Origin: Candidatus Nealsonbacteria bacterium DGGOD1a
Lineage (GTDB): Bacteria > Patescibacteriota > Minisyncoccia > Minisyncoccales > UBA5738
Length of the DNA: 64,000 nt
Assembly (NCBI GenBank): GCA_022530585.1
Contig: CP092821.1
Location: 134,222 to 198,221, forward strand
Direction: 5' to 3'
In this document: one piece after another, positions 1,067-62,890 of the stretch
How positions within the stretch are numbered: the first letter of the stretch is position 1
Layout of the letters: every line of letters begins with the position of its first letter
The notes under the pieces: model-generated
What the model was told of the DNA's origin: nothing
Databases searched by the model: none
Seen by the model: the letters and a program-made list of their open reading frames with translations, nothing else
Made by a program: the position numbers and the translations under genes

Positions 1067-1076
1067 AACAATATAT

Positions 1077-1204
1077 CTTGAATTACGAAACGCTTTGCAT
1101 TTGGGGTCTATCCCTTGCTGCCCGTCCCGAGTATTCCCGAGGGATAATCGCAAGGGTTAGACCCCTTCAAAGCATTCGTATTTAATGGTTTCGCAATCCA
1201 AAGC
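1077..1204. repeat. Palindromic intergenic element, family A, copy 1 (forward orientation)
   Basis: CTTGAATTACGAAACGCTTTGCA...GGGGTCTATCCCTTGC...GCAAGGGTTAGACCCC...GGTTTCGCAATCCAAAG; same architecture at 53874, 56928 and inverted at 32586, 62745. Confidence 0.7.
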
Positions 1205-3394: not shown

Positions 3395-3472
3395 TGCGAT
3401 GGCATTTGTAACTGTTCACTGGGGAGCAAATTTGTTGAGGTCAACGAATTTGCGGTAAGGGATGGCGCGAAT

Positions 3473-3513
3473 TTGGAGGTCAAACCTCTCGCAAGCCGAG
3501 GATTGACCTCCAA
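3473..3513 (+). terminator. Hairpin downstream of pilB (possible terminator)
   Basis: TTGGAGGTCAA...TTGACCTCCAA 11-bp arms with nested CCTC/GAGG; a T-run follows only after 9 nt, so weak as an intrinsic terminator. Confidence 0.35.
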
Positions 3514-3568
3514 ATCCGCTATTTTTAACCTCCCGGCGAGCGGTTACTGGCATTTGATTTGCATATTT

Positions 3569-3596: not shown

Positions 3597-3686
3597 AGAT
3601 TTGGTTTTTTGAAAGTTGTATTGCGGCGGAGAGCGGGCGATATTGTTTTGGAAATAATTTTACCTTGTTTCCGCCACATTAAAATA

Positions 3687-4439
3687 ATGAAGAAAAATTA
3701 TCGTTTGTCCGCAATTGTTTGCGCGCTGGCGGTGTCTCTGGCGATGTGCTTTGCGGTTGCGGCGTGGAACAGCCCCGATGGCACTCCGCCCGCCGACAAT
3801 GTCGCCGCGCCGATCAACACTTCAAGCGCGGCGCAAACCAAAGCCGGCGATTTAAGTTTGGGCCATAATATTAATGTTACCAGCGACAGCGCGTCCGGCC
3901 GCTTTTGCCTGGCGGGGGAATGTTGCGCCACATGGGAAGAATGTTTTGGCGGAAGCGGCGGTTGCGGTTGCGATTCTTGGATAAATGCGGGTTGCGGCGC
4001 AGGAGGATGCAACGCGGACCGAATGTACCAAACCAGGACATGCAGTCCTTCGGGATGTGATTCCGAAACCCGTTGCGCGACGGACGGGTCTTGCGGGAGC
4101 GCCCCTTGCGCGCCGGATTGCGACGGCAAGGAATGCGGCGACGACGGGTGCGGCGGCGAATGCGGTTCGTGCTCCGGCGGATTGACATGTATTGGTGGTG
4201 ATTGTTTTGATTGCGCACAAGCTTGCGCTAATCAAGAAGCGACTTGCGGCTGGATATCTGCGCCTTTCGGGTGCGGCGATAATTACTGCGGCGATTGCTC
4301 GTCGGGGATATGTCATGTGAATACTTGCTGGCCATATTGCAGCGAGCTTGATTGTTTGGAGATTATTCCGGGCGGAGGGCTGGATCAATGCGTTATTGGG
4401 GAAGGAGGAGGATTTAATGATGTAATTCTCTGCTTTTAA
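3687..4439 (+). CDS. Secreted Cys-rich protein, paralog 1 (conserved leader/stalk + variable head)
   Basis: ATG 3687 preferred over track start 3609 because MKKNYRLS start and its upstream DNA are conserved at 7746. Signal helix AIVCALAVSLAMCFAVAA|W, boxes PPADNVAAPIN..AQTKAGDL and CLAGECCATWEEC, then Cys-rich tail (CGDDGCGGECGSC). Confidence 0.75.
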   Translation: MKKNYRLSAIVCALAVSLAMCFAVAAWNSPDGTPPADNVAAPINTSSAAQTKAGDLSLGHNINVTSDSASGRFCLAGECCATWEECFGGSGGCGCDSWINAGCGAGGCNADRMYQTRTCSPSGCDSETRCATDGSCGSAPCAPDCDGKECGDDGCGGECGSCSGGLTCIGGDCFDCAQACANQEATCGWISAPFGCGDNYCGDCSSGICHVNTCWPYCSELDCLEIIPGGGLDQCVIGEGGGFNDVILCF

Positions 4440-4667
4440 TTAAAGCATTTATAATTCAATTCTGAATTATGAAATGCCAAAAATGAGTGTATAAAGTCCG
4501 GCCTTGTTTTTATATGTGTGGATTACAGCGAGCGCGTTAGCGGCGGTAAATGCATAAACAATGTATGCTTTTCATATTGCGATAGAACTTCCGGCGATAT
4601 TTTCTGTCGATGGGTGGCTGAAGATTGATAAATTGTTTTAGGGACTATTTTTACCAAAGCATTGAGT

Positions 4668-7448
4668 TTATTGCAATATTGCCAGCTGTTTTTGCAATTC
4701 GGCAATCAATTGAATTATCAGTTGAATCAAGAGTTCTCTAATTTGAGCGATCTTTGCCAAAATTTCCTCACGCCCCATTTGCCGGTTTTGCATTTGCATT
4801 TGTTCTTGTCTTTGCAGTTCATAAATATCATCCGTTGGTTTTTCAAATTCGTTACTTTGGTCATTCACCATTTCCCCAAAATTTTTTAATACACATTTAC
4901 CGTTGGAACAAATTTTTTTGGCCGCCGAACAGTCCGTATCGTCAATCCATAAAAAATTGCTGGCACAGGCGCCATTCATGCAGAATCTCTTTATAATTTG
5001 CTTTTGCGTCCATTCATTGCGGCAACGATAATTATCAGTAGTGGTATCAACACCGCAATTTTCCGCCAATTTTTCTTTGACACCGCATGAATTATACCAA
5101 TAAAGATTACCATCTTCGCATTTTTGGTTTGTTTGCGGCGCGCAATTTTCGACGCATTTTCCGTTAGAACATGTTTTTTCGGTTTTACAAACGCCGCAAT
5201 TTATCGTTTTGCCGCAACCATCGCTCCATAATCCGCATTTGTAATTTCCCAAACTCGCGCAAGTTTTGGGAACGCAAACGGTGGAACATTGGTTATTGGA
5301 GCATATCTGTCCGGGCGGACAATCCGCCGGCACCGACCACTCTAGGCAAGAATCCAAATCATAGTTATCGCAAATTTTATACGCGCTTCCGAAACATTGC
5401 ATTGCTCCGAATGCGGAACATTCATTCGCGCAAGCTGCTTCCTTATGGTCAACTCCCCATACTTCAAGTTCGCCAATACTCACAAAATGAGCGCTCCCGC
5501 CCGCATCGCCAACAATACGAATGCCGTTGCCAACGATATTGTTTAAATTAAAAGTATAAGATTCAAAATTCGGTCCAAATAGGTTCTGATTATTCGTGTT
5601 TGGATACGAGGGAAACAGCGTTGCTTGCGCATCAATCCACGCGCCGTTTTGCAACACTTGAACTCGCAAGCTTCCGTTTGCAAACCATCCGCCATCCCAA
5701 AAATGTTTTCCTTCGGTAAAAATAATCTTGGAAAATTTTTTATTTTTGTTAAAAGTATATCCGTAATGCTCTTCATGAATAGCTCCATTACCGACAAAAG
5801 AATCATATTGAAGTTCAATGGCATCCGAAAAGCAATATCCCGGACAATACGAATCATTATAGCAAGCTTGCGACACGGTCGCAGTCAAAGGAGAAGGCTT
5901 AATCCCGTCACGAATGGTTTCAATATTTTTATTGCCTCCGCCCAAGGGACTGAAAACGCTAGCAATAATATTCCCTTGAGAAGCAATATTAACAGGAGTG
6001 CCACCAACGCTAATCGGTATTTTTTCCCATGTCGTATTCCCCTGCATATCGGTCACATAACAAACCGCTTCATAAGCACCGTTTTGAGCATATTGATGAT
6101 TAACATTGGCTCCATTCGCATAAAAGGTATCGCCAAAAAACCATTGATAGCTTTTTATTCCATCGCTGTCGGCGGCTTGCGCATTGAAAGTAAATGTTCT
6201 GTTCCCAAGATCGGTCGCGTTAACGGTCAAACTAGGCTTCGAATTTGTAATTAGAGGCCATTGTTCAAGAATCGGAGGCACGATAACACTTTGATTTGGA
6301 AGATACCAAACACCGCCGCTGATTGTGCCGCCGGTTGTCGCCAAAGATTTGCGTGCAAGCTCCAGATTAACATTAATTGCATCATTGAATGTATAGCTTG
6401 TATTCGCAAACTTATTCCCCATAACATTGAGCGCGGATTTCCATTTATCCGGAATCGCTGAATAGCCCAAAAAATTACCCATTATACTACCGACAGTTGA
6501 CGGATTGCAATCGCTATCTTGTCCGCAACGCATAGAAATACGCATTGACTGCTCAAAATCGCCATCGCCATATAGCAAGCCGATTAAGACATATGCGGCA
6601 TTCAATTTGGCATCAATATTAAACACATTACTGATGCCTTGCGGGCAACGATCGTCTTGTCCCCATTTACTTTCAAGTAATCTCCAATTTTCTTCCCATG
6701 TCTTGCCCGCATTATTCCATGCAATAACATCTTCAATCACCTGCCTAAATTTACTGCCAACCGGCACTGCCTGTCGCCCCGCTTCAATAATCTCATTTAC
6801 ATTATTGGCCGTAAATGCTTTTGCGTGCATCGCGGCAACAAAAACACCTCCATACACGCCGTCTCCATAATTAATCATATGCCCCGCCCTCCAAGCAAGC
6901 TCAATTGCGGAATTAATCTGTCCGGGATTAATCATACCGGCAAAATCCGCTTCAATTTGCCAATCAATATCATCGGAGTGAGGCGTATTGCTATAATGCG
7001 CATTGTCAGGAACAATTATCCCTTTTTGCAAATTGGCGCGTGAAAAATAATTGGCATGGCACAATCCAAATGAAGTATTCAAAAACTCATTCCCAAAATC
7101 GCTCCATGTGGCATTAACGCCATATTTTTTCATCGCCTCCAAAAAGGGGATTTCAACATAAATATCGTCTTGATTGAACCCATTGTTTACCATTTCCGGC
7201 AACCAAGCGGGAATCTCGTATTCCGCCAGCACTCTGCCCTTCCCTTGGAATTCCGTAGGTGCGCCCCATGCCACACCAGCCATTTGCCCAACCCAACCTC
7301 CTTTGACTTTATCAATTATCGCAGATTCACTTAAAAAGACGCTACCGGCGAAACAAACAGAATCATTTTGATTGCCGTAACAGAAAAACAAAAACATCGC
7401 GCTCAATATAGAAAAGGCGAGCGTATAACCGTTGGTTTTTAAAAACAT
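4668..7448 (-). CDS. Secreted multidomain protein: ADP-ribosylglycohydrolase-fold + PKD + beta-sandwich (discoidin/CBM-like) + Cys-rich repeats + C-terminal coiled coil
   Basis: 926 aa; signal peptide; ARH-like N- and C-terminal motifs (GVAWGAPTEF; GQDSDCNPSTVGSIMGNFLG); PKD signature YQWFFGD..NHQY..GAYEAVCYVTD; ...GELEVWG; C-rich tail; ends LIQLIIQLIAELQKQLAILQ. Confidence 0.7.
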   Translation of the reverse strand: MFLKTNGYTLAFSILSAMFLFFCYGNQNDSVCFAGSVFLSESAIIDKVKGGWVGQMAGVAWGAPTEFQGKGRVLAEYEIPAWLPEMVNNGFNQDDIYVEIPFLEAMKKYGVNATWSDFGNEFLNTSFGLCHANYFSRANLQKGIIVPDNAHYSNTPHSDDIDWQIEADFAGMINPGQINSAIELAWRAGHMINYGDGVYGGVFVAAMHAKAFTANNVNEIIEAGRQAVPVGSKFRQVIEDVIAWNNAGKTWEENWRLLESKWGQDDRCPQGISNVFNIDAKLNAAYVLIGLLYGDGDFEQSMRISMRCGQDSDCNPSTVGSIMGNFLGYSAIPDKWKSALNVMGNKFANTSYTFNDAINVNLELARKSLATTGGTISGGVWYLPNQSVIVPPILEQWPLITNSKPSLTVNATDLGNRTFTFNAQAADSDGIKSYQWFFGDTFYANGANVNHQYAQNGAYEAVCYVTDMQGNTTWEKIPISVGGTPVNIASQGNIIASVFSPLGGGNKNIETIRDGIKPSPLTATVSQACYNDSYCPGYCFSDAIELQYDSFVGNGAIHEEHYGYTFNKNKKFSKIIFTEGKHFWDGGWFANGSLRVQVLQNGAWIDAQATLFPSYPNTNNQNLFGPNFESYTFNLNNIVGNGIRIVGDAGGSAHFVSIGELEVWGVDHKEAACANECSAFGAMQCFGSAYKICDNYDLDSCLEWSVPADCPPGQICSNNQCSTVCVPKTCASLGNYKCGLWSDGCGKTINCGVCKTEKTCSNGKCVENCAPQTNQKCEDGNLYWYNSCGVKEKLAENCGVDTTTDNYRCRNEWTQKQIIKRFCMNGACASNFLWIDDTDCSAAKKICSNGKCVLKNFGEMVNDQSNEFEKPTDDIYELQRQEQMQMQNRQMGREEILAKIAQIRELLIQLIIQLIAELQKQLAILQ

Positions 7449-7463
7449 ATTTTAAAAAATTAT

Positions 7464-7596
7464 CTGAATTACGAAATGCCAAAAATGGCGCAAAATGAGT
7501 AATGCTGGCGGCAGTCGGTTGGCCGCTACTAACATACTTTATTTTACATCATTTCCACATTTTTTTCCACATTTTTGGCATTTCGTAATTCAAAGG
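7464..7596. repeat. Palindromic intergenic element, family A variant (same termini, different core)
   Basis: CTGAATTACGAAATGCCAAAAATG ... CATTTTTGGCATTTCGTAATTCAAAGG; half-copy at 4462-4489. Confidence 0.6.
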
Positions 7597-7658: not shown

Positions 7659-7745
7659 AGATTTGACTTTCTAAAAGTTGGGTGGCGGAGAGCGGGCGAT
7701 ATTGTTTTGGAAATAATTTTACCTTGTTTCCGCCACATTAAAATA

Positions 7746-8366
7746 ATGAAGAAAAATTATCGTTTGTCCGCAATTGTTTGCGCGCTGGCGGTGTCTCTGG
7801 CGATGTGCTTTGCGGTTGCGGCTTGGAAAAGTCCCGATGGCACTCCGCCCGCCGACAATGTCGCCGCGCCGATCAACACTTCAAGCGCGGCGCAAACCAA
7901 AGCCGGCGATTTAAGTTTGGGCCATAATATTAATGTTGCCAGCGACAGCGCGTCCGGCCGCTTTTGCTTGGCCGGGGAATGTTGCGCCACATGGGAAGAA
8001 TGCGCCACATTCGGTGGTAGTGGCGGTAGTTGCAAACTTGTACCGATAAGCGATGTCTTGGTAGCCGGTTATGATAAATATCGGTGTAAAGATGATTGCA
8101 CATTTTTTTATTGTTCCTATAATTATTATTGGTGTCCGGCGAACAGTTGCGTTATAGGTTTGGGCGGTCTTGAATATTTCTTTTGGAGCAAAGCTTCCAG
8201 AAGATTATGCGCCGGAAACGGTTATGAGGTGTTCATAGAAGATAGCTCTCAATACAATGATACCGATGATTGCAGTCCGGATGGGGGAGCTCCGCTTAGT
8301 AATTTTACCGCGGGATCGGGAATATATGCTTGCGATAACGGGACATGGGTTAAAACCAGCGATTAG
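7746..8366 (+). CDS. Secreted Cys-rich protein, paralog 2
   Basis: First ~85 codons nearly identical in DNA to paralog 1, diverges right after CCATWEEC into an unrelated Cys/aromatic-rich head. Confidence 0.75.
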   Translation: MKKNYRLSAIVCALAVSLAMCFAVAAWKSPDGTPPADNVAAPINTSSAAQTKAGDLSLGHNINVASDSASGRFCLAGECCATWEECATFGGSGGSCKLVPISDVLVAGYDKYRCKDDCTFFYCSYNYYWCPANSCVIGLGGLEYFFWSKASRRLCAGNGYEVFIEDSSQYNDTDDCSPDGGAPLSNFTAGSGIYACDNGTWVKTSD

Positions 8367-8407
8367 AAATGTTGGAGCAAAATACAGTTTCGTAATTTAA
8401 GATAATT

Positions 8408-9052
8408 ATGAATCATCATTTAAAATTTTATGCGGTGGCGGTGTGCGCGCTAATTGCCGTTTTGGCATTGTGTTTTGTAGCCATGGCATGGAACAATCCC
8501 GGCGGCCCTTCGCCCACCGAAAATGCTGACGCGCCGATCAATGAGGGGGCGACCGCGCAAACGAAAGCCGGCGATTTAAATCTGGGCGGCAAACTGAATG
8601 TTGCCGAAGACAGCGCGTCCGGCCGCTTTTGTTTGGCCGGGGAATGTTGCGCCACATGGGAAGAATGTTTTGGCGTACCGACGCCTTCGACTTGTTCCTG
8701 TGGTAGTTGGGCGTTTGTCGGTCCCGTTTCCAATTGCGGCGTTGAGGATGTGAGTGTTAGCAGGCAAAGCCGGGACTGCTATCCCGATGGTTGCGATTTT
8801 GAAACGAGATGCGTGAGGACAAAATATGATCCGAGCCCGGCACCGGGAATTAGTTGCAGCGCGGATAACGAGTGCGGATTCGGAAGCGCGTACGGATATT
8901 GTTGCGATTCTCATGACGGCTGGTGCGTTCTTCGGGATCAGGAAACGATGAGCGATGCTGAATGGTGCGCTTATAGCGGCCGGGAGTGCGGGACATGGAT
9001 TGCCGCTTGCGGCAGAAGCGTATACTGCGGAATCTGCAGTGAGGGAGAGTGA
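8408..9052 (+). CDS. Secreted Cys-rich protein, paralog 3 (as bounded by in-frame TGA)
   Basis: Signal helix AVAVCALIAVLALCFVAMA|W, APIN..AQTKAGDL, CLAGECCATWEEC boxes; preceded by GTTTCGTAATTTAAG box 7 nt from ATG. Confidence 0.7.
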   Translation: MNHHLKFYAVAVCALIAVLALCFVAMAWNNPGGPSPTENADAPINEGATAQTKAGDLNLGGKLNVAEDSASGRFCLAGECCATWEECFGVPTPSTCSCGSWAFVGPVSNCGVEDVSVSRQSRDCYPDGCDFETRCVRTKYDPSPAPGISCSADNECGFGSAYGYCCDSHDGWCVLRDQETMSDAEWCAYSGRECGTWIAACGRSVYCGICSEGE

Positions 9053-24123: not shown

Positions 24124-24357
24124 TTATAACTTGCTTGTTTTCAAGCAAAGTTTGAAATAAAAGGGTAGGAGTAGCTTTAATGATTTTTTGGTAGCGATAC
24201 CGCCGGCTTGTTTGAATATCGCCAGCGATAATACTTGGATGATCGGCAATGCCAATTTTCGACCGGTTTTGTTTGTGAGCTTGTCAATTTTTAATTGTTG
24301 TGAAAAAATACTTACCACCTTCCTGATTTCGTTGTAAAATGGAATTACAACTTTCAT
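24124..24357 (-). CDS. Short hypothetical ORF, possibly a gene remnant
   Basis: 77 aa; double stop; a homolog of the 22424-22534 segment follows in another frame (23990-24123). Confidence 0.3.
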   Translation of the reverse strand: MKVVIPFYNEIRKVVSIFSQQLKIDKLTNKTGRKLALPIIQVLSLAIFKQAGGIATKKSLKLLLPFYFKLCLKTSKL

Positions 24358-24441
24358 GTTGGTGTTGAGTCGGCGATTTACCGGTCGCCGGCTCTGGTGT
24401 CATTTTAGCATTTTTTAGGAGTTTCGTAATTCAAAGAAATT

Positions 24442-26702: not shown

Positions 26703-28170
26703 TGTCAAATACAAGTAGAAATGTCATACCCGGAATTTAAGTAGAAATGTCATACTTGACTTTTGTAGAATTAGTATTGTTATTTCCGGAAAAATATTTT
26801 AACAATTGATTTTTGCGATTTCAGCGGCGATTTGTTTGCGCCAAGGATGATCCGCCGGTGGCTTGGAGATGATTCTTTTTGCCGGTATGGCGGCAATCAA
26901 TTCTTTGGCTTTCAACGGCTTGGCCGGCAGGATTTTGAAGTTTAAATATTTATCCCGCAGACGGATCGCCAGCGATCCGTCGAGCCGCTCTTCCATCAAA
27001 ATTTCATCCTTGCGGCGCACGGTGGCGATCTGCTCTTTGGCGATCTGTATCCATTGGTTTTTGAACCTTATCGTGAAATCATTCTGTACCCGCCTTTGCG
27101 ATTGGACGGAAAATATCGCGTCAAGATTTGAACTTTGAAAATCGGGCAGCTGCCGGTGCAGATCGTTTTTCTTTTTGGGAATCACCGAAAATCTTTGATT
27201 GAAATCCGGAATGAATTCTTCTTTTAAGAATTTGCTGGCCGCGGCGATATCGCTGATGCCGCGCAATCGCAATTCCTTGACCAGCCGGTCCTGCAAAGTG
27301 TCAAAGAGCCGTTCGATTCGGCCTTTGGCTTGCGGGCTGTTGGCGGTGATCAGGGTTATATCCAGTTCCCGGGCGGCTCTCTGAAACTGGGTGATCATTT
27401 CGCTGTTGTCTTTTGCATTTTTGTGATTGATCTTATATGTACTGAATTTATCCAGGTAGATGGCTATCGGTTTGCCTGATTCTTGGAGGTAGCCTTTCCA
27501 GAATTGAAACACATTGATGACGCTTTCGCTATCCGTGAATTCCGCCCGGGTGATCCGGCCGGTGGCATCGTCGACGGAGGCCAACAAACAAGATTCATCG
27601 CCGCGTTTCTCAAACCAGAAGTGGTAACAGCCGTCGAATTGTTCCAGCTCGCCCGGCGATTCTTTGCGTTCTCTTTGGCAGCGGAATTCCTGGTTTTGTT
27701 TTCTTGGTTTGGGCATCCAAATCTTTTTTGCGATCATTAAATTGCGCGTGGTCTGCTTGCCAATTTTTATTCCTTCAACCTCAACCAGTTTTTCATGCGC
27801 CAAGGTCGGGCCGAAATCAGGATACTTTTCTGAAATTATTTGTCCGGATTTTTCCCAGATTTTAAGATCGGTCTTATTGTTGCTTTGCTTGCCTCGCAAG
27901 CCGTGAATGATCCCATTGGCGCCTTTCTCCCGCACTTTGTTGCGCAATCGCTTTACCTGCCTTACCGACCGCCCCAGCTGCTTGGCCGCATCGCCCGGAG
28001 TGATTTCTTTGGCGATCAATTTTCTTATTACTTCATACCTGTCCAGCTCTTTTTGCGTCATCTTGAATAATTCTTTTTCCATATTGGTGGGTTATGTTTT
28101 ATCCACCAATCATACCAGGTATGACATTTCTACTTGGACGCAAGTATGACATTACTACTTTTAAATGACA
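26703..28170 (-). mobile_element. Insertion sequence, ISNCY/IS1202-group-like, with 15-bp direct duplication
   Basis: ~27-bp imperfect terminal IRs starting TGTCA (23/27 match). Each end holds two copies of AAGTAGAAATGTCATAC (26713, 26739; inverted at 28119, 28144). Flanked by TTCGTGCGCCAAACC at 26688-26702 and 28171-28185. Confidence 0.75.
26799..28082 (-). CDS. DDE (rve-type) transposase, ISNCY/IS1202-like
   Basis: 427 aa; N-terminal HTH MTQKELDRYEVIRKL..AAKQLGRSVRQVKRL..GLRGKQSNNK; catalytic region DD..D..SPQAKGRIERLFDTLQDRLVKELRL. Confidence 0.85.
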   Translation of the reverse strand: MEKELFKMTQKELDRYEVIRKLIAKEITPGDAAKQLGRSVRQVKRLRNKVREKGANGIIHGLRGKQSNNKTDLKIWEKSGQIISEKYPDFGPTLAHEKLVEVEGIKIGKQTTRNLMIAKKIWMPKPRKQNQEFRCQRERKESPGELEQFDGCYHFWFEKRGDESCLLASVDDATGRITRAEFTDSESVINVFQFWKGYLQESGKPIAIYLDKFSTYKINHKNAKDNSEMITQFQRAARELDITLITANSPQAKGRIERLFDTLQDRLVKELRLRGISDIAAASKFLKEEFIPDFNQRFSVIPKKKNDLHRQLPDFQSSNLDAIFSVQSQRRVQNDFTIRFKNQWIQIAKEQIATVRRKDEILMEERLDGSLAIRLRDKYLNFKILPAKPLKAKELIAAIPAKRIISKPPADHPWRKQIAAEIAKINC

Positions 28171-32493: not shown

Positions 32494-32585
32494 CGGCTTT
32501 CCAAAATTGGTGGAACTCAATTAAAATTTCTCAGAAGCAAGACACCTGCGAACCACACATGCTATAATTAAAGATAATAATAACT

Positions 32586-32687
32586 TTACATTACGAAACC
32601 ATCGTTTTTAAATGTTTTGAAGGGGTCGCACCCCTGCGATTACACAGGGGAACGACCCCAAAATGCAAAGCGTTTCGTGATTCAAAA
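32586..32687. repeat. Palindromic intergenic element family A, short-core copy (inverted orientation)
   Basis: CATTACGAAACC...GAAGGGGTCGCACCCCTGCGATTACACAGGGGAACGACCCC...CAAAGCGTTTCGTGATTCAAAA. Confidence 0.65.
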
Positions 32688-32702
32688 TAATAAATAAAAA
32701 AT

Positions 32703-33191: not shown

Positions 33192-33267
33192 AAGGGAAGC
33201 ATTGCGCTTGTTTTATGCGCGAGTTGCCCGACGGCGTGTATATTTTTGATTAAGTTCTTGTTATAAT

Positions 33268-33427
33268 GGGTCTGTCGCCGAATTGGCTTCAACCGCGATT
33301 TCCATTTTTCGGCTGCAAAGAATTCATCATTCGTCGCCGGATTTAGCTTAAATATGCCTCCTCATTCTTCATTCTTTTCGCTCGAAAACTGAAAATTTCG
33401 TTCTGAAGCTAATTCGGCGACAGACCC
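33268..33427. mobile_element. 160-bp MITE-like element, family B, copy 1
   Basis: TIRs GGGTCTGTCGCCGAATTGGCTTCA / TGAAGCTAATTCGGCGACAGACCC; flanked by ATAAT on both sides. Confidence 0.65.
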
Positions 33428-33505
33428 ATAATGAACGCGGGAGGGCGCCGCATCAAAATCGGCGGTTGCGATTTTGCCGGTTTGCCGTAACAAAATCAAA
33501 TCAAT

Positions 33506-53219: not shown

Positions 53220-53861
53220 ATGATTAAATTCAAAGTTAATCGAATTATCAAATTTTTGCTTTTGTCGGATTTTGTTTTCTGGAGCGGTTGGGGTTTGGTC
53301 GCGCCGATATTCGCGATTTTTATCGTTGATAAAGTCGTGGGCGGGAATGAATTCGTGGTCGGAATTTCCACCGCGATCTACTCGGCGCTTTCGGCGCTGT
53401 TGAGAATTCCGTTGGGATTGTTTTTGGACAATCAGCCGCATGAAAGATCCGACCTTTGGTTTGCCATAACCGGATTGTGGATCGCATCGTTGAGTTCGCT
53501 GTTCTTCGCGTTCGCGTTCTTGCCGTGGCATATTTATGTTTTGCAAGCGATCCATGCGACCGGCATGGCAATGAACCTTTCGGGTTGGACCGCGCTGTAC
53601 ACTCGCCATATCGATAAAGGCCGGGAATCGACCGAATGGGGCATCAGCGCCGTATCGGTGGGCGTGGGCGCCGCGCTGACCGCGGTTATCGGCGGATGGA
53701 TGGCCGCCAATTTCGGTTTTAAAGTGGTTTTTATATGCGTGGGAATAACCGGTTTTCTCGGTTCGGCAATGCTGTTGTTTATTTACCGCCAGATACAAAA
53801 AGGCTCCGGCCACGGTTTGTATTTCAGTTTGAAGGAATTGGCGCGGAAAGCCGGAGAATAA
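53220..53861 (+). CDS. Six-TM MFS-like half-transporter
   Basis: 213 aa, six hydrophobic helices, LRIPLGLFLDN loop motif. Confidence 0.55.
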   Translation: MIKFKVNRIIKFLLLSDFVFWSGWGLVAPIFAIFIVDKVVGGNEFVVGISTAIYSALSALLRIPLGLFLDNQPHERSDLWFAITGLWIASLSSLFFAFAFLPWHIYVLQAIHATGMAMNLSGWTALYTRHIDKGRESTEWGISAVSVGVGAALTAVIGGWMAANFGFKVVFICVGITGFLGSAMLLFIYRQIQKGSGHGLYFSLKELARKAGE

Positions 53862-53873
53862 TTTTATAATTTC

Positions 53874-54000
53874 TTTGGATTACGAAACGCTTTGTATTCG
53901 GGGTCTATCCCTCGCGCCTGTCCCGAGGCTTTTGCGAGGGATAATCGCAAGGGTTAGACCCCTTCAAGGTATTTGAATTTAATGGTTTCGTAATTCAAAG
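53874..54000. repeat. Palindromic intergenic element family A, copy (forward)
   Basis: CTTTGGATTACGAAACGCTTTG..GGGGTCTATCCCTCGCGCCTGTCCCGAGGCTTTTGCGAGGGATAATCGCAAGGGTTAGACCCC..GGTTTCGTAATTCAAAG, 6 nt before polX ATG. Confidence 0.75.
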
Positions 54001-54006
54001 TAATTT

Positions 54007-55749
54007 ATGCCAAACAATCAGCTGGCCAAAATTTTTTATGAGATTGCCGATATGCTCGATGCCGACAATACGCCGTTTAAGCCGTTTTCTTATCGCAAGG
54101 CCGCCCGCGCTCTGGCCGATTTGAAAGATGATGTCGCCGAAATTTATCGGCGCGGCGGTTTGAAGGCGATTGAAGAAATTCCGGGAGTCGGCGCCAGTAT
54201 CGGCGCGAAAATAGAAGAATATATTCTAAAGGGCGGAATTGATTATTACGAGGCGCAAAAGCGCCGCTTGCCCGCGGATTTGAGCGAAATCGCCGCGGTG
54301 GAGGGGCTGGGCTTCAAAAAAGCCAAGGTTTTATATGAAAAATTGGGCGTGAAAAATTTGGCGGATTTGGAAACCGCGGCGCGCGCCGGAAACATCGCGC
54401 CGCTGTTCGGGTTTGGCGAAAAATCCCAAGCCAATATCTTGCAGGGGATTGAATTCCGCAAATCGTCCGGCGGCCGGTTTTTGCTGGATCAAATCTTGCC
54501 GCGAGCGCTGGCGGTCAAAGATATTTTGGAAAAACACGGCGGCTTGGCGCGGGTGGAAATTGCCGGATCGCTGCGCCGGCGCAAGGAAACCATCGGCGAT
54601 ATCGATCTTTTGGCCGCGATAAAGCCGGGCGCGGACGCGGCCAAGATTATGGATTTTTTCACCGCCCTGCCCGAAATTGAAAAAATCTGGGCCAAAGGGG
54701 CGACGAAATCGTCGGCGAGAACAAAATACGGTTTTGATATGGACTTGCGTTTGGTGCCGCCGGCGTCTTTCGGCGCGGCGTGGCAGTATTTCACCGGCTC
54801 AAAGGATCATAATATCGTTTTGCGGTGCATCGCCAAAGAAAAAGGATTCAAGCTTTCCGAATACGGGTTATTCCGCGGCGCGGAAATGATCGGCGGCGCA
54901 AACGAGGAAGAGATTTATCAAAAATTGGGATTGGAATGGATTTGTCCGGAATTGCGGGAGAACCGCGGCGAGATTGAGGCCGCGCGAAATCATAATTTGC
55001 CCGATTTGATCGGCGATCGCGGTTTGCGCGGCGATCTTCATTGCCATTCGGATTGGAACGGCGGCGACAATTCCATTGAAGAAATCGCCGCCGCCGCGGG
55101 CGCGATGGGCTATGAATATGTCGGCATTGCCGATCACACGAAATTTTTGAGAATTGAAAACGGACTTGATGAAGCGGCGCTGGCGCGGCGCAATCTCGCG
55201 ATTGACGCGCTCAACAAGCGAAACGCCGGTATCCTTGTTTTGAAAGGATGCGAGGCCAATATTATGGCCGACGGAACGATTGATATCGCCGACGAATCGT
55301 TGGCCGAACTTGATTTTGCCATTGCCGGCGTTCATTCGGGTTTAAAAATGAAACGCAAAGAAATGACGGCGCGGATCATTCGCGCGATGGAGAATCCCTG
55401 GGTTGATATCATCTCGCATCCCACTGCAAGATTGCTCAAAAAACGGCCGGAGTGCGAAATTGATTTTGACGCGATTTGCGCCGCGGCGGCGGCGACCGGC
55501 ACGATTTTGGAAATAAATTCCCATCCGGATCGTCTGGATCTAAACGATCGGCATATCCGCATCGCCGCGGCGCGCGGAGTGAAAATGGCAATCAATACCG
55601 ACAGCCACGATGTTTCCCATTTGCGGTTTGCCGAATTCGGCATCGCGCAGGCGCGGCGCGGCTGGGCGGCCGCGAGCGATATTGTTAACGCCTTGCCGTG
55701 GCCGGAAGCAAAGAAAATCTTGAAAAGAAACCGAAAAAGAGTAAATTAA
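54007..55749 (+). CDS. polX: Family X DNA polymerase with C-terminal PHP domain
   Basis: 580 aa; HhH motifs, GSLRRRKETIGDIDLL, PHP HCHSDWNGG ... DSHD. Confidence 0.85.
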   Translation: MPNNQLAKIFYEIADMLDADNTPFKPFSYRKAARALADLKDDVAEIYRRGGLKAIEEIPGVGASIGAKIEEYILKGGIDYYEAQKRRLPADLSEIAAVEGLGFKKAKVLYEKLGVKNLADLETAARAGNIAPLFGFGEKSQANILQGIEFRKSSGGRFLLDQILPRALAVKDILEKHGGLARVEIAGSLRRRKETIGDIDLLAAIKPGADAAKIMDFFTALPEIEKIWAKGATKSSARTKYGFDMDLRLVPPASFGAAWQYFTGSKDHNIVLRCIAKEKGFKLSEYGLFRGAEMIGGANEEEIYQKLGLEWICPELRENRGEIEAARNHNLPDLIGDRGLRGDLHCHSDWNGGDNSIEEIAAAAGAMGYEYVGIADHTKFLRIENGLDEAALARRNLAIDALNKRNAGILVLKGCEANIMADGTIDIADESLAELDFAIAGVHSGLKMKRKEMTARIIRAMENPWVDIISHPTARLLKKRPECEIDFDAICAAAAATGTILEINSHPDRLDLNDRHIRIAAARGVKMAINTDSHDVSHLRFAEFGIAQARRGWAAASDIVNALPWPEAKKILKRNRKRVN

Positions 55750-55762
55750 ACGGCAGGGAGCG
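55681..55762 (+). repeat. Direct repeat copy 1 (native 3' end of polX)
   Basis: ATTGTTAACGCCTTGCCGTGGCCGGAAGCAAAGAAAATCTTGAAAAGAAACCGAAAAAGAGTAAATTAAACGGCAGG.. recurs at 56828-56899 with a 9-nt deletion. Confidence 0.75.
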
Positions 55763-55782
55763 TGCCGGGATTTAAATCATAG

Positions 55783-56613
55783 ATGAAAATACTTTATATT
55801 GACGAATCCGGGGATACAGCGCCATTGTTTCAAGAGGGGAGCAGAATTTTGGTTTTGACGGGGTGTATCATTGATGAAAACGACAAAAGATAAATTGACG
55901 CGCGCCTGCGCGGAATAAAGATAAAGTTTTACCAGAATACGGAAATTGAATTTAAATCTAATTTTTTGCGCTACGCAAATCCGAAAATTAACAATCCAAA
56001 AATAAATTCGCCGATAAAGCTGTTTGACCAAGCCCAATATGACGCGTTGCAAAAAGAAATTCAGTTGTTTTTAAAAGAAATTCCGGTTTCTTTGATTTCG
56101 GTGGTGATTGATAAAAAAGGTTATTGGACAAAATATCCGTCTCAAAATCCCTACCATGCGGCTTATATTTTTCTTTTGGAAAGATTCCAAACTTACCTGA
56201 ACTGTGAAAATGCGGCTGGAATTTGCATTATTGATCCGCGCGAGGGAAGAGTGGTTGATAAAAGAAACATAGATAAAGAATTAAACGATATCCATCGGCT
56301 TCTCCAGTGGGAGAAGGGCGGATTTTGGAAGCCGTGCCCAAGAATTATTGAAAAAGTTTTATTTTCCGATTCATCTCTGACAACTGGGATTCAAATTGCC
56401 GACTTATATTGTTATCCTGTTTACCATATTTTTCAATATGACAAACAAGGGAAAGAATATGATTGGTTCAACGGAATTACTAAACCTAAATTTTACTATC
56501 ATTTAAAACGCATCGAATCAACAAACCTGAAACAAATCGAACCGGTTATCGATGGCACGGGATTAAAATTTTTTCCGACTGAAACAAAAAAGGACTTCCG
56601 ATTTTATCAGTAG
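55783..56613 (+). pseudogene. DUF3800-like gene interrupted by one in-frame TAA (55891-55893)
   Basis: MKILYIDESGD start typical of DUF3800 (from memory); frame continues through TAA into the 55966-56613 ORF. Confidence 0.55.
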
Positions 56614-56827
56614 TCCGCTTTTGATGGGCGAGGTCTTTTGCCTCCTCGACCAATTATATTTTAACATAGAGAGTAATTTATTGTCAAATTTATCTTTAAA
56701 CTTATAGTATTGCATCAAAATTTTCCGACAAATCCTTATGAAATTCTTGATCCGGCAATCCGGTGGTTTTTGGCGGATGATAATTCGCGCGACAAGGACG
56801 ATGAAAAGCGGTTGCCGCCGCTGTGGC

Positions 56828-56899
56828 ATTGTTAACGCCTTGGAAGCAAAGAAAATCTTGAAAAGAAACCGAAAAAGAGTAAATTAAACGGCAGGAGCG
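56828..56899 (+). repeat. Direct repeat copy 2 (duplicated polX 3' end)
   Basis: See 55681-55762. Confidence 0.75.
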
Positions 56900-56927
56900 C
56901 GTTATGATTTTAAATTTGCGAAATTGT

Positions 56928-57054
56928 CTTGAACCGCGAGACGCTTTGCATTTTGGGGTCTATCCCTCGCGCTTGTCCCGAGGCTTTCGCGAGGGATAAT
57001 CGCGAGGGTTAGACCCCTTCAATGCATTTGAATTTAATGGTTTCGTAATTCAAA
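56928..57054. repeat. Palindromic intergenic element family A, copy (forward)
   Basis: Near-identical core to 53874-54000; GGTTTCGTAATTCAAAAG ends 6 nt before NUDIX ATG. Confidence 0.75.
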
Positions 57055-57060
57055 AGAAAT

Positions 57061-57507
57061 ATGAAATTTGAAAAATCCGCCGGAGCGATAATTTTTCGCG
57101 ATGATAACGGGATCAATAGATTCCTGCTTTTGCGTTATCCGGCGGTTTGCCACCGTTCGGGCCGGGATTATTGGGATTTCGTGAAAGGCCATGTGGAAGC
57201 GGGGGAAAGCGAATTGGAAACGATAATACGCGAAGCCGAGGAAGAAACAGGATTGCGCGACTTGGAATTTGTCCCGGGTTTTTCGCAAAAAATGGAATAT
57301 TTTTTCACCTTTAAAGATCAAAAGATTTTCAAGATCGTTAATTTCCGTTTGGCGCAAACATTTTCAAAAGACATTGTTTTGTCTGATGAGCACAATGATT
57401 TCGCTTGGCGGCCTTATGATGAAGCGTGCGCGGCGTTGTCGTTTGGCAATGCCAAAACGGTTTTAAAAAGCGCGAATGATTTTTTGGAAAAATTAAAAAA
57501 ATTATGA
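57061..57507 (+). CDS. NUDIX hydrolase
   Basis: Nudix box GHVEAGESELETIIREAEEETGL. Confidence 0.85.
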   Translation: MKFEKSAGAIIFRDDNGINRFLLLRYPAVCHRSGRDYWDFVKGHVEAGESELETIIREAEEETGLRDLEFVPGFSQKMEYFFTFKDQKIFKIVNFRLAQTFSKDIVLSDEHNDFAWRPYDEACAALSFGNAKTVLKSANDFLEKLKKL

Positions 57508-58427: not shown

Positions 58428-58448
58428 AAATATCGATGTTCTCATATT

Positions 58449-58608
58449 GGGTTTGTTGCCGAATTGGCTTCAACCGCAATTTCCATTTTTCGGCGGCAAA
58501 GAATTCATCATTCGTCGCCGGATTTAGCTTAAATATGCCTCCTCATTCTTCATTCTTTTCGCTCGAAAACTGAAAATTTCGTTCTGAAGCCAATTCGGCG
58601 ACAGACCC
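58449..58608. mobile_element. 160-bp MITE-like element, family B, copy 2
   Basis: Nearly identical by eye to 33268-33427; flanked by ATATT on both sides. Confidence 0.65.
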
Positions 58609-58731
58609 ATATTAACTTGAATATCACTCAACCCTGGAATAAAGCTAAATTTAAGGGTTCGGCTATTCAACTTAATCAGAGAGGGTCGATAGCATCAATT
58701 TTTTAATCCATATATCCCGAAGATTTTAATA

Positions 58732-58767
58732 TCGATGTAATTTTTGCGATCGCAAGATTTACATCGG
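58732..58767. repeat. Hairpin repeat family C, copy 1
   Basis: TCGATGTAATTTTTGCGATCGCAAGATTTACATCGGA. Confidence 0.6.
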
Positions 58768-59408: not shown

Positions 59409-59445
59409 CAGATGTAATTTTTGCGATCGCAAGATTTACATTGGA
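59409..59445. repeat. Hairpin repeat family C, copy 2
   Basis: CAGATGTAATTTTTGCGATCGCAAGATTTACATTGG. Confidence 0.6.
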
Positions 59446-60364: not shown

Positions 60365-60399
60365 CCGATGTAATTTTTGCGATAGCAAAAATTACATCG
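60365..60399. repeat. Hairpin repeat family C, copy 3 (perfect 15-bp stem)
   Basis: CCGATGTAATTTTTGC-GATA-GCAAAAATTACATCG. Confidence 0.6.
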
Positions 60400-62681: not shown

Positions 62682-62744
62682 TTTGGCAGTCGCGCCCGAT
62701 TTTTGGCGGTCCGGCGATTCATCGCAATTAATTTTTATAAATTA

Positions 62745-62872
62745 CTTTGAATTACGAAATCATTAAATTCAAATATTGTTGAAGGGGTTTAACCCTTGCG
62801 ATTATCCCTCGCGAAAGCCTCGGGACAAGCGCGAGGGATAGGCCTCGAATACAAAGCGTTTCGTGATTCAAG
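62745..62872. repeat. Palindromic intergenic element family A, copy (inverted orientation)
   Basis: Reverse complement aligns with 53874-54000; CAAAGCGTTTCGTGATTCAAG faces the downstream gene. Confidence 0.75.
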
Positions 62873-62890
62873 AAAATTATTTTTAAAAAT

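Follow-up and report, generated by a model that had tools for sequence, protein, structure and literature searches.

Palindromic repeats next to start codons in Candidatus Nealsonbacteria DGGOD1a are very probably miniature elements of an IS982-family insertion sequence

Short palindromic repeats recur immediately upstream of start codons in a 64,000-nucleotide (nt) stretch, hereafter the window, of contig CP092821.1 (positions 134,222 to 198,221) from Candidatus Nealsonbacteria bacterium DGGOD1a, a member of the Patescibacteria that lives on Methanothrix as an episymbiont and whose closed genome measures 1.16 Mb; PolX and PilB as encoded in the window are identical to proteins of this organism. 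Here, we report that the repeat, taken as a whole, is very probably a non-coding MITE (miniature inverted-repeat transposable element) of an IS982-family insertion sequence (IS), presumably brought close to start codons by target preference and by tolerance of insertion there. As read from the DNA, the repeat combines small size and absence of coding function with terminal inverted repeats (TIRs), target-site duplications (TSDs) specific to each copy, presence/absence polymorphism and the termini of a transposase-encoding IS. A preliminary description of this DNA had proposed an element resembling a MITE or a repetitive extragenic palindrome (REP), which may now be specified as an IS982-family MITE on account of its TIRs, its TSDs, the empty sites in relatives and an autonomous partner with identical termini. 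The paper describing the DGGOD1a genome reports 39 transposases and does not mention MITEs, and a literature search on MITEs or palindromic repeats in Patescibacteria and Parcubacteria returned nothing directly relevant.

The element, here termed family A, was defined by a covariance model built on 14 copies drawn from several genomes. In the window the model finds exactly five full copies, with E-values of 1e-15 to 1e-21, and no further significant match, in keeping with the five copies previously listed, whose coordinates agree with ours within 1–2 nt (Table 1). Ten occurrences of the end motif TTGAATYACGAAAC, with at most one mismatch allowed, were counted in the window, where chance predicts 0.16. 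The five copies have a mean identity of 78% when aligned. Family A measures 104–130 nt and comes in a short form of ~105 nt and a long form of 128–129 nt, the 128-nt form being the ~105-nt form with an internal hairpin insertion of ~24 nt. Four window copies are long, and copy 32584 alone is of the short form (~104–105 nt) that dominates in other Patescibacteria genomes. The TIRs are 16 nt long, C[T/C]TTGAATTACGAAA[C/T], and each copy folds as one long nested hairpin with a GGGGTC hairpin as its core; for copy 53874 (53873 in Table 1) the fold reaches −62 kcal/mol (z = −7.9), and the opposite strand is almost as stable. All nested pairings named earlier are present, including the alternative pairing CCCTYGC/GCAAGGG, which exists because of the ~24-nt hairpin inserted in the 128-nt form. 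No copy has coding capacity, the overlapping open reading frames (ORFs) being only long spurious ones that cross the whole element. Core-pattern scans of public genomes and metagenomes located the element in several metagenome-assembled genomes (MAGs) of Minisyncoccales, Paceibacterota and Patescibacteria. In viral contigs the 16-nt end gave 27 matches, which is chance level, all in coding regions of low-GC phage genes and with neither partner repeat nor core.

The marks of transposition are found at the borders of the element. With boundaries placed 2 nt outside TTGAAT, every family-A copy in the window has a direct repeat at its flanks (Table 1), and copies in other genomes are flanked by TAATTA, AATTTT, TAATTG, TAAATTC (7/7), AAATTA and TAAAATA (7/7). 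The duplicated target is 5–7 bp long, A/T-rich and similar to TAATT, and it differs from copy to copy. At least six of seven flank bases match in 11 of 16 elements (69%), compared with 25% in a cross-element control in which the left flank of one copy was paired with the right flank of another.

Comparison with relatives at syntenic loci (L036–L040; L numbers denote the loci compared) revealed three spacers that are empty at the orthologous sites. The spacer between pilM and a gene for a 175-amino-acid (aa) protein spans 212 nt with the element here and 86–90 nt without it in L038 and L040, both of which keep the ATG-proximal leader "attatttt(t)aaaaa(a)tATG" of the 175-aa gene. The polX–NUDIX spacer of L040 is just 8 nt long and constitutes an empty site, and the copy 5' of polX is not in the four related genomes (L036–L040), for which the polX protein identity is 96% in L036 and 86% in L037. 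A 213-aa fragment of a major facilitator superfamily (MFS) transporter (53220–53861), located between greA and polX, is not in the four relatives examined either; it arrived, or was kept, together with MITE copy 53873. In L038 (5262–5469) and L040 (9752–10003) the greA–polX spacer 5' of polX is occupied by tandem arrays of ATCATATA(A) units, which amount to repeated TATAAT-like boxes.

An orthologous copy of 56927 is present in L036, which shares 95% DNA identity with the window over the aligned 4.4 kb. Between these two strains the element evolves faster than its flanking DNA: the 129-nt element in front of the NUDIX gene differs by eight substitutions and a 12-nt deletion, including two substitutions in the 14 nt of the ATG-proximal repeat, against no substitution in ~390 nt of non-coding flank.

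The termini connect the element to its presumed source of transposase. One and the same 16-nt terminus bounds an IS of ~1,015 bp, families A, B and C and the solo ends, and because of this sharing the elements are taken as MITEs of an IS982-family IS. The previously noted variant with the same ends is present at 7462–7595 and represents family B; its 31-nt arms resemble or match the inner left end of the full-length IS (ACGAAATGCCnAAAnTG...), and its interior is unrelated to that of family A. Family C is a different palindromic element of 146 nt, found in two places in L038 with the same or nearly the same termini. Families B and C thus have their termini in common with family A, but not their interiors. 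The three solo ends reported before are also present (4460–4475, 8387–8402 and 24421–24436). That at 8387–8402 is probably the remnant of a decayed copy; it lies between two members of a set of paralogues made up of a 300-nt duplication of 98% identity (3625–3924 and 7684–7983), comprising the upstream region and 5' part of a gene of unknown function, and an adjoining third paralogue (8349–8648, 60% identical). The end at 24421 is, judging by its sequence, part of a truncated copy of the IS982-family IS (24124–24436). On its inner side it is similar to the left IS end of L072. This type of end is found a second time in L026, together with at least 94 nt, with another outside flank and no adjoining start codon.

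The truncated copy encloses a 77-aa ORF (Table 1) that is 68–70% identical over 60–64 residues to the N-termini of proteins P0226, P0258, P0272 and P0282. A word-indexed protein search with this ORF returned only the self-match, and an exhaustive HMMER search returned 34 relatives, the longer of which match NCBIfam NF033520 (IS982 family) and Pfam PF13612; PF01609 also matches. At the NF033520 cut-off of 130 bits P0258 (135.8) and P0272 (133.6) pass, and P0226 (127.8) and P0213 (128.3) fall just under it. A profile search with the transposase family gathered more than 2,400 proteins with a typical length of 267 aa, and the IS982-type parent IS is widespread in Patescibacteria metagenomes. Complete ISs of 1,013–1,017 bp, each with one transposase ORF of 267–284 aa, were recovered from L072, L073 and L074–L076. 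Their boundaries read CTTTGAATTACGAAA[C/T] ... [G/A]TTTCGTAATTCAA[A/G]G and they are flanked by TTATTA, TAATAT or TAATTA; L072 has the termini CTTTGAATTACGAAAC / GGTTTCGTAATTCAAGG, and L073 and L074–76 have C[T/C]TTGAATTACGAAAT / ATTTCGTAATTCAAAG. When the boundaries are set by the direct repeats, the IS ends begin with CT, CC or TC. No pair of TIRs 0.7–2.5 kb apart was present in the first 41 loci, and the partner was found only via the 77-aa ORF. A complete ISNCY-family IS is located at 26703–28170, with a transposase gene on the minus strand (26799–28082; NF033594, E = 7e-116) and doubled inverted repeats of ~20–27 nt at its ends (AAGTAGAAATGTCATAC); it was considered as autonomous partner and rejected, its inverted repeats being unrelated.

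Members of the IS982 family are ~1 kb long and generate direct repeats of 2–10 bp; a conserved 5'-AC forms the ends in 57 of 69 curated members, and five members begin with CC (PMC7335449). The parent IS conforms to this family in its length, its single DDE transposase (two of which pass NF033520 and match PF13612), its inverted repeats of 16–20 bp and its direct repeats of 6–7 bp, which fall within the family range. It differs by having the termini C[T/C]TTGAAT rather than AC and by its Patescibacteria hosts, which are unlisted in that review, and the window copy is truncated.

Short extragenic hairpins may also arise in another way, as REP sequences or bacterial interspersed mosaic elements (BIMEs) mobilised by a REP-associated tyrosine transposase (RAYT, a Y1 HUH transposase related to IS200/IS605) instead of a DDE transposase. 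Our elements share with REP and BIME that they are short, extragenic and hairpin-forming, sometimes as inverted pairs, and some related elements carry two inverted hairpins in a BIME-like manner. The imperfect stem with an unpaired T is presumably reminiscent of the hairpins at IS200/IS605 ends. REP sequences are Y1-linked and lack TIRs and TSDs, however, whereas family A has true TIRs and TSDs, features that do not arise by Y1 transposition, and termini identical to those of a DDE (IS982-family) IS. Moreover, there is no conserved 5' GTAG, and a Y1_Tnp domain was found in none of the ~45 window proteins scanned (of about 59 genes). A RAYT origin is therefore scarcely credible.

The position of the element relative to genes is its most conspicuous property. 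All six bounded elements in the window and two of the three solo ends have an end no more than 19 nt from an ATG; for the eight genes named in the preliminary description the repeat end does fall just before the ATG, with gaps of 5–19 nt. In the window, 13–19% of A/T-rich intergenic 7-mers lie within 20–25 nt upstream of an ATG, and 14–29% of well-scoring intergenic target sites lie in that start-proximal zone according to a matrix built from duplications outside this genome. Set against this expectation from target preference, six of six elements is an excess; in two of the six the spacer is too short for any other position, and for the remaining four, which could have lain elsewhere, chance would give this outcome with a probability of roughly 0.002–0.007. 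In other genomes, where ORF calls are crude, an ATG follows the element at 13, 14, 19, 22, 32, 42, 72 or 95 nt, and for one copy there is no start close by. Start-codon proximity is thus real, yet it is not an invariable property of the element.

The genes led by the element were described as lacking a Shine-Dalgarno sequence, which is true but not special to them: a clear motif was found in none of 57 window genes checked and even a weak purine motif in just five, so the missing Shine-Dalgarno sequence is a genome-wide trait and not specific to element-led genes. All through the window the positions from −1 to −14 are A/T-rich, and in 32 of the 57 genes position −1 is a T. Several genes (for example 10809, 25280, 31720 and 58785) have a TATAAT-like box exactly 6 nt before the ATG, which suggests that leaderless mRNAs are frequent in this organism.

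These features allow a mechanism to be proposed. The preferred target sequence would be the A/T-rich DNA that separates the −10 box from the ATG, because the genes have no Shine-Dalgarno sequence and very short or absent leaders; this DNA would also be nearly the only site in a compact spacer at which an insertion of 100–130 nt spares both the gene and the −35/−10 spacing. The selection part of this explanation is one that we infer. Once inserted, the element would be reached by transcription from upstream, either out of the native promoter or by read-through within an operon, and would therefore form a stable hairpin that stands at the mRNA 5' end or separates cistrons. If mRNA stability, processing or termination were affected at all, this would be a by-product.

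The same proximity could instead reflect exaptation as a regulatory cassette, in which the outward repeat GTTTCGTAATTCAAAG acts as promoter or very short leader, the hairpin terminates the upstream transcript and start-adjacent copies are kept by selection. The excess over the 14–29% expected for start-proximal sites would fit such a role, and so would the ATG-proximal repeat, which is closer to the consensus than the distal one in four of five family-A copies, and the sequence TAATTC 9–10 nt before the ATG in four cases. Members of the IS982 family are, furthermore, a known source of promoters upstream of genes, either hybrid or mobile (PMC7335449). In our elements, however, neither end holds a −35/−10 pair with permissible spacing: inspection of all spacings by hand and a consensus scan of 53600–57300 revealed no sigma-70 promoter in the ends, the only promoter-like match in a copy being a weak one (9/12) in the interior of copy 56927. 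The same scan detected no intrinsic terminator at the element ends, as no T-run follows the hairpin.

The genuine promoters are sigma-70-like, as exemplified by TTGTCA-N17-TATAAT upstream of polX in the relatives, and three copies still have a native −10 box close upstream. Copy 32584 is preceded at a distance of 25 nt by an extended −10 box (TGcTATAAT, 32550–32558), TATAAA and TATAAT stand 3 nt before copies 62745 and 53873, respectively, and at copy 1076 the duplicated target regenerates a TATAAT between element and ATG. The location of these native boxes would place the element inside the transcript, not at its source. TAATTC was considered as the −10 box of a leaderless promoter and discarded, the genuine boxes here keeping a strict spacing of 6 nt, not 9–10 nt, from the ATG; a mini-ORF in the right arm (ATGGTTTCGTAA) was likewise rejected as a re-initiation device, being missing from the gene-facing arm of the inverted copies. 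The change at 2 of 14 positions of the ATG-proximal repeat of the NUDIX copy between strains with identical ~390-nt flanks, the second 24421-type end without an adjoining start codon and the wider range of distances elsewhere (13–95 nt, with one copy having no start nearby) also argue against a cassette. The portable terminator plus promoter that had been proposed thus finds no counterpart in the element ends, in the upstream −10 boxes or in the conservation of the ATG-proximal repeat, and exaptation of this kind is very unlikely. Of the suggested 5'-leader role, the portable device giving very short leaders is not supported, and what stands is that the element becomes part of the 5' leader or of intercistronic RNA.

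The interior of the element deserves separate consideration. It contains a two-tier hairpin with TTTGTATTT as its flank, in which a T/T mismatch separates the outer from the inner stem and the loop reads YGTAATCG. Of the cells in the alignment of 14 copies, 92.7% are paired; four core-helix pairs change on both sides, with 96% of cells in the family-A core helix still paired. A search with the loop only (GTAATCG) yielded 13 distinct hairpins with at least 13 of 16 pairs, and the other contexts of the loop stand apart save one at 12 of 16. Compensated changes affect the outer stems (GGGGTCTA/TAGACCCC, AAGGTCG/CGACCTT and AAGGTTTC/GAATCCTT) as well as the inner ones (CCCCTG/CAGGGG, CCTCGA/TCGAGG and CCTTGC/GCAAGG), and while the stems differ in this way, the loop stays YGTAATCG and the internal mismatch T/T (or T/G). 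The same hairpin with its immediate flanks is found in ~200-nt elements with unrelated ends (GTAACCnCTCACTGGGG), and diverged solitary hairpins also occur. These observations could indicate a structured nucleic-acid module that rides in mobile elements, the two-tier hairpin being a selected recognition structure of RNA or single-stranded DNA (ssDNA) and the IS982-type ends only one of its vehicles. Such a structure might be read by an RNA-binding protein of the host, by an RNase or by a second transposase, possibly of the HUH type.

Several findings oppose this explanation, which we regard as unlikely. Rfam, run on the whole window at gathering scores, returned three tRNAs only and, for 53700–57200 at E <= 10, nothing that overlaps the elements meaningfully; at none of these thresholds does any family match the element. 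Both orientations relative to transcription are used, three copies lying one way and two the other. Mismatches of the G.U type number 37 on the plus strand and 28 on the minus strand of the element, which is no asymmetry, and on the transcribed strand of the window copies G.U and A.C are similarly unbiased (16 against 13). The structured-RNA alternative raised in the preliminary description is thereby not borne out for the element as a whole. Template-switch ("quasi-palindrome") correction is an established mutational process that keeps DNA palindromes self-complementary without selection. The covariation pattern fits a DNA palindrome maintained in this manner and by descent; the both-sided changes in four core-helix pairs and the conserved inner loop stand as observed, and selection at the RNA level is not shown by them.

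In addition, the long form interrupts the loop region with its 24-nt insertion and yet exists in at least six copies, and only two divergent stem variants were found independently of the half-hairpin pattern. The conservation of the hairpin is in part a matter of ascertainment, because most loci were fetched by a pattern that fixes half of it, and the set of hairpins with constant loop and variable stems is suggestive only. A more specific proposal is that the inner hairpin, as a selected RNA or ssDNA structure captured by at least two unrelated MITE vehicles across Patescibacteria and delivered between −10 box and start codon, would furnish many mRNAs of these organisms, with their short leaders and missing Shine-Dalgarno sequences, with a common 5' structure controlling stability or translation and hence be a mobile post-transcriptional regulon in the candidate phyla radiation (CPR); this we find distinctly unlikely. 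A related structure occurs in the spacer downstream of a pilB-like gene (3398–3548), where the hairpin at 3476–3510 (GAGGTCAAACCTC...GAGGATTGACCTC) has the two-tier architecture of the family-A core with compensatory G-to-A and C-to-T changes; the ends of this spacer element resemble those of the ~200-nt "CACTGGGG" elements of L010, L013, L014 and L020.

The interpretation as a MITE of an IS982-family IS has to be weighed against six observations. The IS ends start with C[T/C] and not with AC, which makes them a minority variant rather than an exclusion from the family. No intact copy of the IS was seen in this genome, the truncated copy in the window and the end copy in L026 being the only ones. 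Flank comparison at family B (7462–7595) disclosed no clear target-site duplication. The flanks of different copies look alike because the target is A/T-rich and partly palindromic (TAATTA), and this likeness weakens individual duplication calls. Start proximity in all six elements exceeds what target preference predicts and is explained only in part. Finally, the inner hairpin, with its invariant loop, covarying stems and presence in MITEs with unrelated ends, is unpredicted by a purely passive MITE interior.

Table 1. Coordinates of the family-A copies, of family B and of the solo ends and transposase remnant in the window.
Feature	Coordinates	Strand	Direct repeat (left / right)	Element end to ATG (nt)	Remarks
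Family A, long form (128 nt)	1076–1203	+	CAATATA, 7 bp (1069–1075 / 1204–1210)	19 (gene 1223)	Covariance model 98 bits; between histidine-kinase stop 1066 and response-regulator ATG 1223
Family A, long form	53873–54000	+	TAATTT (53867–53872 / 54001–54006)	6 (gene 54007)	Model match; between MFS fragment stop 53861 and polX ATG 54007
Family A, long form	56927–57055	+	GAAAT (56920–56924 / 57056–57060)	5 (gene 57061)	Model match; 5' of NUDIX gene ATG 57061
Family A, short form (~104 nt)	32584–32687	−	ATAATAA (32577–32583 / 32687–32693)	15 (gene 32703)	Model match; inverted relative to the three + copies
Family A, long form	62745–62873	−	AAATTA (62739–62744 / 62874–62879)	17 (gene 62891)	Model match; between pilM stop 62681 and 175-aa gene ATG 62891
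Family-B MITE	7462–7595			13 (gene 7448, minus strand)	Same 16-nt termini, 31-nt arms; next to minus-strand gene 4668–7448
Solo end, family-B type, TTCTGAATTATGAAATGCCAAAAATG	4460–4489	+			Between two convergent gene ends; no start codon near
Solo end TCTTAAATTACGAAAC	8387–8402	−		5 (gene 8408)	One mismatch to 14-mer
Solo end, putative TIR of truncated IS982-family IS	24421–24436	−		5 (gene 24442)	Exact 16-mer match; IS interior towards lower coordinates
77-aa ORF, putative N-terminal remnant of IS982-family transposase	24124–24357	−			Starts 80 nt inside the 24421 terminal repeat; frame broken downstream by stop codons

Other repeats are also found in the window. A second MITE-like family is represented at 33265–33432 and 58447–58609 by two copies of ~165 nt that share 95% identity. 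Their inverted ends measure 29 nt (GGGTCTGTCGCCGAATTGGCTTCA), and repeats of 5 bp flank them (ATAAT, ATATT); in L007 a family-A element is directly adjoined by the end of a copy of this second family. A 30-nt palindrome, ATGTAATTTTTGCGATCGCAAGATTTACAT, occurs three times (58733–58762, 59410–59439 and 60366–60395), in each case just 5' of one of three consecutive genes encoding a PaaX_M-type regulator, a radical-SAM protein and an MGMT-like DNA-binding protein, and these palindromes look like operator sites of a local regulon. A 24-nt motif, GCGAACATCGnTTGCCAGACGACC, is present five times in one orientation (21207, 26566, 28877, 30270 and 31549), where genes resembling cassettes (NYN, two Fic/DOC and others) end, or shortly past that point. 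These genes belong to a low-GC island of about 20.5–32.5 kb that comes after tRNA-Arg and tRNA-His; this island looks like a recombination-site or cassette array. Between 37529 and 52302 the window encodes very large proteins (1647, 1006, 1420 and 548 aa) made of ~95-aa repeats with conserved cysteines (YTFYVxCKD motif), for which precomputed annotations hold only faint Big_13 / Y_Y_Y matches and which are probably surface proteins.

Palindromic elements of similar size are well known from other bacteria. The Correia elements of Neisseria (Correia repeat enclosed elements, CREE, or Neisseria miniature insertion sequences, NEMIS) are palindromic MITEs of ~100–155 bp with inverted termini, inserted near genes and transcribed together with them in the form of long hairpins; they can influence how RNase III processes the mRNA and can contribute promoter elements. 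They duplicate TA, carry binding sites for integration host factor (IHF) and defined outward promoters, and to our knowledge have no autonomous partner. By analogy, the present element may work like Correia elements once transcribed, from which it differs in its 5–7-bp duplications, its identified IS982 partner and the absence of a recognisable promoter. The enterobacterial repetitive intergenic consensus (ERIC) sequences, also called intergenic repeat units (IRU), are imperfect palindromes of ~127 bp in transcribed intergenic regions of Enterobacteria, present in both orientations and with size variants created by internal insertion. Our element is also palindromic, occurs in both orientations and has a size variant from internal insertion, but its sequence is unrelated, and we know of neither a transposase partner nor a comparable start-codon preference for ERIC.

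The closest parallel in origin is MITECca01, an IS982-derived MITE already described in Cardinium, the endosymbiont of Oedothorax gibbosus (PMC9769881). Both are non-coding, MITECca01 being a deletion-type derivative with IS982-family inverted repeats that is present in many, mostly intergenic copies in a reduced host-associated genome rich in decaying IS copies. MITECca01 is ~240 bp long and resides in a Bacteroidota host, whereas the present element measures 105–128 nt, has a strong nested hairpin as an interior not obviously derived from that of the IS, comprises at least three families on one terminus pair and is almost always located just upstream of starts.

The repeat of the closed DGGOD1a genome and of related Minisyncoccales and Paceibacteria MAGs is thereby explained and tied to an abundant IS982-type IS. 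A motif shared before start codons is accordingly not to be taken as a promoter or a ribosome-binding signal. CPR episymbionts with genomes of ~1 Mb carry active MITE families, at least two of them in this window, and the MITEs take up a large share of very short intergenic spacers, with insertion sites that trace the A/T-rich, Shine-Dalgarno-free initiation regions. Should the hairpin prove functional, it would provide one of the few ways into gene expression for CPR bacteria that are not in culture.

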